The notes below the pieces were generated by a model that saw only the letters and a program-made list of their open reading frames with translations, ran no database searches and was not told the origin of the DNA. Positions 52,685-54,397 of a stretch of DNA of 64,000 nucleotides are shown one piece after another (the first letter of the stretch is position 1; every line of letters begins with the position of its first letter). The translations under genes were made by a program, and so were the position numbers. The DNA is from an uncultured Lentisphaeria bacterium (lineage in GTDB: Bacteria; Verrucomicrobiota; Lentisphaeria; Oligosphaerales; Oligosphaeraceae): assembly GCA_934661755.1 (NCBI GenBank), contig CAKUJM010000006.1, positions 11,134 through 75,133 on the forward strand, in the 5' to 3' direction.

Positions 52685-54397
52685 ATGGAAAACGAATATA
52701 CGGACATTGAGCAACTGCTGTATCGATACCAGTTTGCACTTCTTGCCGGAAACGCCGGAGAACAGGAACTTGCAGAAAAGGCAGTCAGGAACGCAAGCCC
52801 CAAGACGGCGACAGAGCTCATTGACGGCGCCAAAACCTTCGCCGAGTCAAACAAAGTCGAGTTGATGACCGTATACCACTTCGGGAAGGATGATTTTGCG
52901 GACGGGCTGTTTTCCAACCTGACGATGGTGAAGAAATGCAAGGAAGACTTGCATAGCCATGCATTGTATTTTGCCCTGCAGTATTTCTTCAGAAGAGGAA
53001 AGACGGAATATGCCCGGACACACCCGCAGCCTCGGATGCCAGATGTTCTGGAAGGCGACCAGGCGGCAAAAATGGAGGCCCGCCAGCGGGCAATCAATTC
53101 CGTTGTCAATGCAGAGCATGATGATTATCCCGAAGGCGAAGACGATGAGGGGCCGTCGTGGACACATAAGCCTTCAATCCTGCCACTACCCGAATCGGAG
53201 GCCGCCGGGGCAGCCTCCCCGGTTCACGAATATGATGTTGTCATCCACACTCTGGGCAAGGACACCAATATTCCACAATACTTCTGCATGGAGCAATTTC
53301 CCGCAAGGGAACATTGGTTCATCACCTCGGAGGCGTCAGTCGAGAGGATCGATGCGCTGATGCGGATCTTTCCCGGCCTGCGGCACGAAATAAAAAAGGT
53401 GGACGCATTTGCGGTTGCGGATACCACCATCGCACTTAACTCCATCGTAAATGAATTGCCGCCAACGTCCAGAATCGGCATCAACCTGACTGGCGGAACC
53501 AAGCTGATGTTTGCCGGCGCTTTGCAGGCATGTGGCAGGCATGGCAATGTGGAGCCACTCTACTTCGATATCGGCAGGGAAAATATCATATTCCTGAACA
53601 CCGGCGACATCATCCCGTTCAAAGGGGTGAGGACCACCGAGAACTTCTTTGTCGCCAGCGGATACAGAATTGTCACTCCGGGGCACTGGAGAGACAATCC
53701 CTATCGTGAAAGCAGGCGGAAGCTGACTTTGTGGCTATGGCAGCATAGGAAGGAATTGGGGGCGCTCTACTCCACACAGGTTTTTCGCGACTACTGCAAA
53801 GCCCGCAATGATAAAAATAAAAAACGCTATGGCGGGTTGCATTCTCTCAATACTGCGGACCAGCCATTTGCCTGGGAGGGTCAAAACGGTTTTGCGGTCT
53901 CCTATGGCAGGGTTGGCAATGGCTTCAGGGCCACAGTGGCTATTGGCGAGAAAAAAATCGAGATACCGACAGCAGGTCCGGATTTTGGACGCTACATCAC
54001 TGGTGGCTGGCTAGAGGAATACGCCTATCTCCGGCTCGAACCGCTGTTGAAGACAGGCAGGATCTTCGATCTTCGCATCGGCATGGAGGTGGATTCATAT
54101 AAGAAGATCAATCCGCTGGACAGCTCTCCGGTCAATGAATGCGATTGCGTATTCACCGATGGACGGCGGCTGTATATTGTCGAGTGCAAGGCAGGCAACG
54201 TAAACTCGGAACAGGTCACCAAGCTGAGCGAGAATGTCAGGGTATACGGCGGCCCCGCCGGACAGGGAATTTTATTGTCATCGTTCCAGACCGGCACTGG
54301 AGTCATGGAGCAAATCCGCAAGTTCAAGAACATCAGTTCCATCAGCGACAACGATGCAAATGACAATCTGGCATTTGAAAGGGTGATAATCCCATAA
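52685..54397 (+). CDS. Can2/Card1-like CARF plus PD-(D/E)xK nuclease effector with an extra ~190-aa N-terminal region
   Basis: CARF block 'RIGINLTGGTKLMFAGALQA' and nuclease block 'CDCVFTDGRRLYIVECKAG' (D...ExK). The start is uncertain: the first in-frame ATG is at 52685, and the ORF-track start at 52556 is TTG. Confidence 0.78.
   Translation: MENEYTDIEQLLYRYQFALLAGNAGEQELAEKAVRNASPKTATELIDGAKTFAESNKVELMTVYHFGKDDFADGLFSNLTMVKKCKEDLHSHALYFALQYFFRRGKTEYARTHPQPRMPDVLEGDQAAKMEARQRAINSVVNAEHDDYPEGEDDEGPSWTHKPSILPLPESEAAGAASPVHEYDVVIHTLGKDTNIPQYFCMEQFPAREHWFITSEASVERIDALMRIFPGLRHEIKKVDAFAVADTTIALNSIVNELPPTSRIGINLTGGTKLMFAGALQACGRHGNVEPLYFDIGRENIIFLNTGDIIPFKGVRTTENFFVASGYRIVTPGHWRDNPYRESRRKLTLWLWQHRKELGALYSTQVFRDYCKARNDKNKKRYGGLHSLNTADQPFAWEGQNGFAVSYGRVGNGFRATVAIGEKKIEIPTAGPDFGRYITGGWLEEYAYLRLEPLLKTGRIFDLRIGMEVDSYKKINPLDSSPVNECDCVFTDGRRLYIVECKAGNVNSEQVTKLSENVRVYGGPAGQGILLSSFQTGTGVMEQIRKFKNISSISDNDANDNLAFERVIIP

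Follow-up and report, generated by a model that had tools for sequence, protein, structure and literature searches.

A predicted Card1/Can2-type CARF nuclease with a helical N-terminal domain on an acidic tether beside a type III-B CRISPR operon of an uncultured Lentisphaeria bacterium

The gene described here lies in a 64,000-nucleotide stretch of DNA from an uncultured Lentisphaeria bacterium (GenBank assembly GCA_934661755.1, contig CAKUJM010000006.1, positions 11,134 to 75,133), referred to below as the window. The 570-residue protein that it encodes, P0001, is predicted to join a helical N-terminal domain and an acidic linker to the CARF and PD-(D/E)xK nuclease domains of a Card1/Can2-type effector. 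The features of the gene, in window coordinates and with the supporting evidence in parentheses, are as follows:

52685..54397, plus strand: whole gene, 570 residues and stop codon, with helical N-domain, acidic linker, Card1-type CARF and PD-(D/E)xK nuclease (open reading frame)
52685..53023, plus strand: N-domain, residues 1–113, predicted seven-helix bundle (AlphaFold2 (AF2) model, codon bias, homologous N-domains in the metagenomic protein P0045 and the congeneric species G001)
53024..53230, plus strand: linker, residues 114–182, a low-confidence helix at 124–142 and then an acidic, proline-rich, disordered stretch with DDYPEGEDDEG (pLDDT, the predicted local distance difference test score, and composition)
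53231..53689, plus strand: Card1/Can2-type CARF, residues 183–335 (sub-threshold Pfam CARF_Card1, PADLOC CARF4, alignment to the CARF of Can2 7bdv)
53489-53503, plus strand: TGGTK loop, residues 269–273 (invariant in alignment A1)
53690..53980, plus strand: middle region, residues 336–432, helical connector and β-sheet as in Can2 (AF2 secondary structure)
53981..54394, plus strand: PD-(D/E)xK nuclease domain, residues 433–570 (Pfam Card1_endonuc above cut-off)
within 53981..54394, plus strand: GGWLEE helix, residues 440–445, in the nuclease domain
54137-54190, plus strand: putative catalytic residues E485, D487, E500 and K502 (all four invariant in A1)

Residues 183–570 are, on the evidence of sequence profiles and a structure model, a Card1/Can2-type CARF plus PD-(D/E)xK nuclease. 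An earlier reading of the letters, made without database searches (the sequence-only reading), had proposed this layout for the C-terminal part of the protein, and Pfam, PADLOC, PDB sequence matches and Foldseek support it over ~390 residues. The Pfam profile Card1_endonuc (PF09002) matches residues 436–513 with 32 bits versus a cut-off of 26.4. The PADLOC profile CARF4--CARF_PDDEXK (PDLC01882) matches residues 179–561 with an E value of 4.9e-82; the match covers profile positions 204–559 of 569 and leaves positions 1–203 unmatched. Comparison with PDB sequences by phmmer identified Can2 (7bdv), a DUF1887 protein (8bao) and Card1 (6wxw), and the alignment with the Can2 CARF includes the TGGTK loop. 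The AF2 model of the full-length protein has a mean pLDDT of 75.7, with the core mostly at 80–93 and a Rossmann-like β/α pattern in the CARF domain. Superposition of this model on known structures using Foldseek placed Can2 8bao first (E 1e-21, template modelling (TM) score 0.77 on the target), followed by 7bdv, VC1899, Card1, Cdn1 and Can1. The alignments to Can2 and Card1 span the middle region and comprise about 400 columns.

Both signatures cited in the sequence-only reading were located, the CARF signature 'INLTGGTKLMFAGALQA', whose TGGTK corresponds to residues 269–273, and the PD-(D/E)xK block 'DCVFTDGRRLYIVECKAG', which contains D487...E500-x-K502; their assignment to CARF and nuclease domains withstood the profile searches. 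The TGGTK loop and E485, D487, E500 and K502 are invariant across A1, an alignment of 11 sequences. E485 and D487 align to E276 and D278 of SthCan2, and E500-C-K502, in 'VECK', provides the ExK motif. The SthCan2 E276A/D278A and TsuCan2 E302A/K304A double mutants are inactive, and both enzymes are activated by cyclic tetra-adenylate (cA4) (PMC7969007). The conserved residues suggest that P0001 may likewise cleave DNA or RNA as a homodimer in a cA4- and metal-dependent manner. At 570 residues the protein exceeds the minimal two-domain architecture of ~340–440 residues, and residues 1–182 fall outside every Can2/Card1 alignment. The solved Can2 and Card1 chains comprise 341–437 residues, close to the ~370–440 given in the sequence-only reading, and thus the ~180-residue extension is real relative to those chains.

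The core is nonetheless not that of a canonical Can2 that gained an extension. Its sequence places it in a large clade, that of PDLC01882 or '2xCARF + D-ExK' proteins, whose members as a rule have an N-terminal extension. Two length classes are seen among the 369 homologues of the whole protein, and neither is a minimal Can2. Proteins of the ~560–610-residue class possess an N-terminal domain of ~200 residues with the motifs LLTWYGITDLRAALG and SPGTPVMAYTW, which matches the CARF part of the PADLOC profile RtcR_PspF2 (E 1e-11) as well as the CARF of the transcriptional activator encoded next to P0001. Proteins of the ~790–815-residue class begin with a P-loop domain (AAA_33/KTI12-like), after which comes the same RtcR-like CARF (hhalign probability 100%), the two together comprising ~430 residues. 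Because the members of the clade carry an N-terminal RtcR-like CARF, with or without the P-loop domain, the helical domain of P0001 appears to replace a sensor rather than to be added to a minimal enzyme. The sequence-only reading was therefore right about the Card1/Can2 layout and wrong in treating the extension as an addition to it. Several 'short' homologues of 357–429 residues (P0009, P0111) begin with MAYTW..., inside the PGTPVMAYTW of the RtcR-like CARF, and lie on contigs of 1.5–2.7 kb; these are best described as truncated gene calls, not as minimal, Can2-like members of the clade.

In the tree of cores, P0001, its close homologue P0002 and P0045 fall within the ~810-residue class (approximate likelihood ratio test support 100). 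A careful tree places P0001 and P0045 as sisters (94/79), each core on a branch of ~1.0 substitutions per site. The homologous N-domains of the two proteins independently favour a single origin of their architecture. The simplest reading of these sequence relationships is that one lineage of P-loop + 2xCARF nucleases swapped its N-terminal sensor module for the helical domain.

Bell et al. (2024, PMC11090510) describe proteins of the '2xCARF + D-ExK' type from compound Type III-A CoCoNuT operons. In all three contexts of relatives that were inspected (L008, L009 and L010) there is no CRISPR nearby, and the nuclease gene, from position 9001 onwards, is the last of a string of five. The string encodes an AAA_11/AAA_12 helicase, a winged helix-turn-helix protein of ~660 residues, a protein of ~950 residues, a DUF2357 (McrC-N) protein of 1100–1300 residues and the nuclease. 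This type IV restriction-like gene content is consistent with a Type III-A CoCoNuT with CnuH-, CnuE-, CnuB- and CnuC-like genes. Downstream, L010 also holds an IS1595 transposase and a methyltransferase-Mrr fusion. The neighbours of P0001 are a sigma-54 activator, cmr genes and an integrase, and not an operon of CnuH with McrB/McrC-like CnuB and CnuC. No CoCoNuT-sized DUF2357 homologue was seen in the genome; the only DUF2357-like reading frame, outside the window, encodes 450 residues (G000:C52:13388-13861, minus strand; McrC-N-like, E 9e-11 to a CnuC-like protein) and is probably an ordinary McrC.

The N-terminal region of P0001 was modelled both in isolation and in the context of the whole protein. 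An AF2 model of residues 1–120 alone, computed from an alignment of only three sequences, has a mean pLDDT of 87.8 and a predicted TM score (pTM) of 0.81, and consists of helices at residues 7–21, 24–37, 42–55, 57–68, 73–76, 80–87 and 89–112. Inside the full-length model the pLDDT of the same domain is 67–89, and that of residues 114–179 falls below 50. This linker has an isoelectric point (pI) of 4.4, with 15 Asp and Glu versus 5 Lys and Arg, and 9 prolines; the part most similar to P0045 is the helix at 124–142 together with the motif 'NAEHDD'. The sequence-only reading had described a helical region that ends in an acidic linker and cannot be assigned, a description that the helices between residues 7 and 112, the disorder and acidity of what follows and the negative searches reported below all uphold.

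The coding potential of this region resembles that of the core. Over residues 1–135 the codon bias is 0.28 bits per codon in frame versus 0.34 for the core, the other two frames score -0.31 and -0.41, and the G+C fractions at codon positions 1, 2 and 3 are 0.59, 0.35 and 0.62. The ATG at 52685 is the first ATG of the frame, which is open back to a TTG at 52556. The homologue P0002, from a near-identical strain, is encoded on a separate contig (L007) among the same neighbouring genes; it also has 570 residues, by an independent gene call, and is 99% identical to P0001. The two genes differ at 8 nucleotides, 4 synonymous and 4 non-synonymous, numbers for which dN/dS is uninformative.

P0045, a metagenomic protein of 531 residues, is 37% identical overall to P0001, begins at an equivalent methionine and is collinear with it through the N-terminal region. 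Smith-Waterman comparison of the two N-regions yielded a z score of 7.5, reached by 0 of 2000 shuffles, over residues 1–160, and a z score of only 2.9 over residues 1–125. A profile of the N-domain (alignment A2) matches a third lineage, the congeneric species G001, with an E value of 1.8e-21. The gene of G001 is split between two contig ends, with the N-domain at the end of C117 and the C-terminal half at the start of C77. The N-domain fragment is 54% identical to the N-domain of P0045, and with P0001 alone it aligns collinearly over ~105 residues, with 18% identity and a z score of 6.9 (0 of 2000 shuffles). The starting methionine of both P0045 and the G001 fragment is equivalent to that of P0001 (MTDN.LTF.. 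versus MENEYTDIE..). Four independent lines, namely the codon bias, the AF2 fold, and the homologues in P0045 and in G001, thus indicate that the N-terminal region is a real part of the protein.

The same observations bear on the proposal that translation begins internally, for example at Met118 or Met130, ahead of the CARF domain at ~183, in which case the N-terminal region would lie outside the functional protein and the upstream frame would be fortuitous. An internal start would accord with the lack of an obvious Shine-Dalgarno sequence before the ATG, with the predicted disorder of residues 114–179 and with the lack of relatives of the N-region among 1.84 billion cluster representatives. 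It would leave to chance a core-like codon bias confined to frame 0, a confident fold for residues 1–113 predicted from three sequences, and an equivalent methionine and ~105 collinear residues in both P0045 and the G001 fragment; moreover, independent gene calls yield 570 residues, as in P0002. We consider an internal start very unlikely. Two possibilities that the sequence-only reading had itself raised against the extension, a true start farther downstream and a separate, frameshifted N-terminal gene, run counter to the conserved start and to the in-frame coding bias and single reading frame shared with P0045, respectively.

Beyond these three lineages the N-domain is an orphan by sequence, among 1.84 billion cluster representatives, and by fold, in the PDB and BFVD. 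Profile searches of Pfam, NCBIfam, PADLOC, PHROGs and the PDB gave no credible match to it. The matches from an exhaustive phmmer search of the representatives with residues 1–185 were limited to one 99%-identical fragment and two artefacts. One of the two, P0123, is a 1341-residue translation of a perfect tandem repeat of ~84 residues, whose 16 copies inflate the score, and the other, P0124, is a low-complexity repeat protein; both were rejected as relatives, and they illustrate that summed repeat scores can mimic homology in such a search. A 2xCARF representative can conceal cluster members that have the N-domain, and P0045 was missed in this way in the search of representatives. Word-seeded searches limited to the N-regions of P0001 and P0045 recovered only the two themselves, and pattern scans with A2 of GTDB genome contigs and JGI metagenome contigs recovered nothing. 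Foldseek searches with the N-domain model gave best E values of 1.9 in the PDB and 1.6 in BFVD, with TM scores below 0.45.

The identity of P0001 to the other two lineages is 18–22% in the N-domain versus 37–43% in the core, and thus the N-domain is evolving much faster. This rate, together with the RtcR-like CARF found at exactly the same position in the relatives, could mean that the helical region has decayed from that CARF, or from some other sequence, into a relic without function, and that the protein works as a plain Can2. MAFFT indeed aligned 'ARTHPQ' of P0001 with 'SRTNPQ' at the end of the relatives' CARF in A1. However, the first, RtcR-like CARF (LLTWYGITDLRAALG ... SPGTPVMAYTW) was not found in P0001 by hmmsearch or hhalign. 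The idea that the N-region is homologous to the N-terminal modules of the relatives was likewise rejected, with no inclusion-level match in hmmsearch and hhalign probabilities of 9% for the ~580-residue class and 0.2% for the ~810-residue class. The apparent CARF tail fared no better: a hidden Markov model (HMM) running from PGTP to the linker scored on residues 85–178 of P0001 at a level reached by 442 of 1000 shuffles, and on P0045 it was also no better than shuffles. The predicted fold is all-α, with high confidence, and not Rossmann-like α/β. Finally, the length, the start and several invariant positions of the N-domain are kept across lineages whose cores are ~40% identical, which argues for purifying selection. 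A functionless relic is accordingly judged improbable.

The surroundings of the gene within the window are:

52471..52684, no strand assigned: divergent intergenic region of 214 bp, with a sigma-70-like TTGTCA-18-TACTAT at 52486-52515 on the plus strand (consensus scan only)
50866..52470, minus strand: RtcR-like CARF / sigma-54 AAA+ / HTH activator (PADLOC RtcR_PspF2, CARF_AAA_HTH, E 1e-142)
42499..50855, minus strand: type III-B module of cas10/cmr2, cmr3, RAMP genes and cas1 (Pfam)
48282-50855, minus strand: cas10/cmr2 (GGDD seen in the translation)
36235 to about 41800: CRISPR array of 74 repeats, beyond cas1
54448..55695, minus strand: XerC/D-type tyrosine recombinase flanking the nuclease gene (Pfam Phage_integrase and SAM-like N-domain; also in L007)

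The activator, in which Pfam identifies the domains Sigma54_activat, AAA_lid_14 and HTH_8, lies directly upstream of cas10-cmr3-...-cas1. The nuclease gene is transcribed divergently from it, as the sequence-only reading had stated, across a shared spacer of 214 bp rather than the 220 bp given there; the spacer is identical in L007. The nuclease is thus one gene away from a cmr operon with a GGDD-containing, cyclase-competent Cas10, and the same holds for G001. In that species the genes follow one another on one strand in the order nuclease, activator, cas10, cmr3, cmr4, cmr5, cmr6 and cmr1 (L013, G001:C77 2-9234, with the N-domain fragment in L014, G001:C117 1-366). The trio of nuclease, activator and cmr genes is therefore kept in both congeneric genomes, with the nuclease divergent in the window and tandem in G001. 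Identities between the two loci are 67% for Cas10, 42% for the activator and ~43% for the nuclease core, and by this measure the accessory pair is evolving much faster than the effector complex. Elsewhere in the genome, which is 93% complete, PF09002 has no further match and Csx1_HEPN has none at all. By its domain assignments, the locus would combine two different CARF outputs, transcription and nucleolysis, as the sequence-only reading had suggested.

We interpret the gene, with a probability of roughly 0.7, as a nuclease effector that belongs to the adjacent type III-B (Cmr) system, responds to cyclic oligoadenylate (cOA) and carries a lineage-specific regulatory or partner-binding head. 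Binding of target RNA by the Cmr complex would turn on the Cas10 palm, in which GGDD is present, to make cOA. The cOA, probably cA4 as in Card1 and Can2, would be bound by the dimeric Card1-type CARF through its TGGTK loop. Binding would close the two PD-(D/E)xK domains, with E485, D487, E500 and K502, into an active metal-dependent nuclease that may nick or degrade DNA, single-stranded RNA or both. The exchange of the sensor module for the helical domain would have taken place in the lineage that came to be linked with an RtcR-like sigma-54 activator and a type III-B operon. Until cOA binds, the head could keep the nuclease inactive, and the acidic tether might then lie in the basic nucleic-acid groove; or the head could instead tie the nuclease to a partner, for example the adjacent activator or the Cmr complex. 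We favour a head with a regulatory or docking function because it sits where the sensor was lost, because its length and start have been kept despite fast divergence, and because the tether is flexible. The ligand, the substrates and any role of the N-domain are inferred here, in contrast to the domain identities, the intact motifs, the existence and conservation of the N-domain, the position in the tree and the conserved gene neighbourhood, which the analysis shows.

Several observations weigh against this interpretation. CARF_Card1 (PF23400) scores 20 bits, below its gathering cut-off of 24.6. In the full-length model (pTM 0.64), whose tether is disordered, it is uncertain how the head sits with respect to the core. 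Ahead of the ATG at 52685 there is no evident Shine-Dalgarno sequence, and the case for translation from this codon is comparative and compositional. The N-domain family comprises only three known lineages, in one of which the gene is split by an assembly gap. The long branch of the core could mean relaxed constraint, and the grouping with P0045 could be open to long-branch attraction. The closest relatives appear to work outside CRISPR loci, a setting in which RtcR-like CARFs have been proposed to recognise RNA ends with 2',3'-cyclic phosphates rather than cOA (PMC11090510), so the ligand may not be cA4.

In an alternative reading, the nuclease answers not to cOA made by Cas10 but to another signal inherited from a CoCoNuT ancestry, the cmr operon being regulated cargo rather than the source of the signal. 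The core is nested in a clade of CoCoNuT-like operons without CRISPR, members of the regulator's family also occur in CoCoNuT and restriction-modification loci (PMC11090510), and nuclease and regulator are adjacent in both genomes despite their differing relative orientation. However, the RtcR-like CARF is precisely what was lost, whereas the CARF that was kept is of the Card1 type, has the TGGTK loop and aligns to the cA4-binding CARF of Can2. In addition, Cas10 retains GGDD, and the genome yielded no further Card1- or Csx1-type CARF effector that could respond to cOA. We therefore regard an inherited, non-cOA signal as unlikely.

Within the interpretation as a cOA-responsive effector, a more specific proposal is that the head serves as a novel module for input or docking, takes over the function of the RtcR-like CARF that was lost and couples the nuclease physically to the activator or the Cmr complex. 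Firing would then need both cOA in the Card1-type CARF and release of the tether and head by the partner. This coupling is a speculative idea to which we give little credence. If it were true, a single type III-B locus would have its transcriptional arm linked to its nucleolytic one, and the protein would be a direct link in evolution between the signalling effectors of the CoCoNuT type and those of CRISPR type III.

P0001 is thus a known kind of effector, the Card1/Can2 type, in variant form, and what is new is the helical head in place of an extra sensor. It resembles Can2 and Card1 (SthCan2 7bdv, Dysgonamonadaceae Can2 8bao and Treponema Card1 6wxw) in the fold of the two-domain core (Foldseek E 1e-21 to 1e-15, target TM 0.6–0.77), in the TGGTK loop of the CARF, in the E-x-D...E-x-K set and in its location beside a type III operon whose Cas10 is cyclase-competent. 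It differs from them in a structural-alignment identity of only 13–18%, in belonging by sequence to a different sub-clade of CARF4, and in the ~180 additional N-terminal residues of bundle and acidic tether, which are present in no solved member. The closest relatives of the core are the '2xCARF + D-ExK' nucleases (PDLC01882, PDLC01900), with 35–49% identity over ~390 residues. In contrast to these, P0001 lacks the RtcR-like CARF, with or without the AAA_33-like P-loop, has the helical domain instead, and is encoded by a gene attached to a cmr operon. Can1, a distant Foldseek match (E 1e-11), is likewise a PD-(D/E)xK effector beyond the minimal architecture that is activated by cA4, the latter being a presumption for P0001. 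Can1 is, however, a monomer with two CARF domains and a pseudo-nuclease domain and without a helical N-domain, whereas P0001 has a single CARF; the PADLOC profile of Can1 matches the nuclease part only (residues 442–532, E 1e-5). Cdn1 (CARF-domain dual-activated nuclease; 8z4i and 9u49) shares the CARF-nuclease fold (E 4e-15), but comprises about 400 residues without an N-terminal domain, and its sequence relation is marginal (E 0.23).

To our knowledge, the characterised members of the Card1/Can2 type, which are among the best-studied cOA effectors, are all minimal two-domain enzymes. P0001 would be a CRISPR-linked member recruited from a clade that otherwise serves CoCoNuT-like restriction operons, with its second sensor exchanged for a domain without recognisable fold relatives on an acidic tether. 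A head that gates the nuclease or determines its location would represent a new route for the control of a potentially suicidal effector; if the head is dispensable, the protein is simply another Can2 variant. The conserved trio would offer a compact system for studying how transcription and nucleolysis are coordinated in answer to a single signal. The case also hints at interchangeability between CRISPR effectors and the 2xCARF nucleases of CoCoNuTs, which are uncharacterised.

At the level of the local DNA, the flanking recombinase, a drop in G+C and the orientation of the nuclease gene, inverted relative to G001, together suggest local rearrangement or acquisition at this gene, and it is possible that the tyrosine recombinase is linked to the inversion. 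The G+C fraction is 0.52–0.54 across 52.0–54.5 kb versus 0.60–0.66 downstream. A scan of the intergenic region revealed no sigma-54 -24/-12 site on the plus strand ahead of the nuclease gene. On the other side of the gene, the 50-bp gap between its stop codon and the integrase gene contains a terminator-like hairpin on the minus strand, at 54401-54415.

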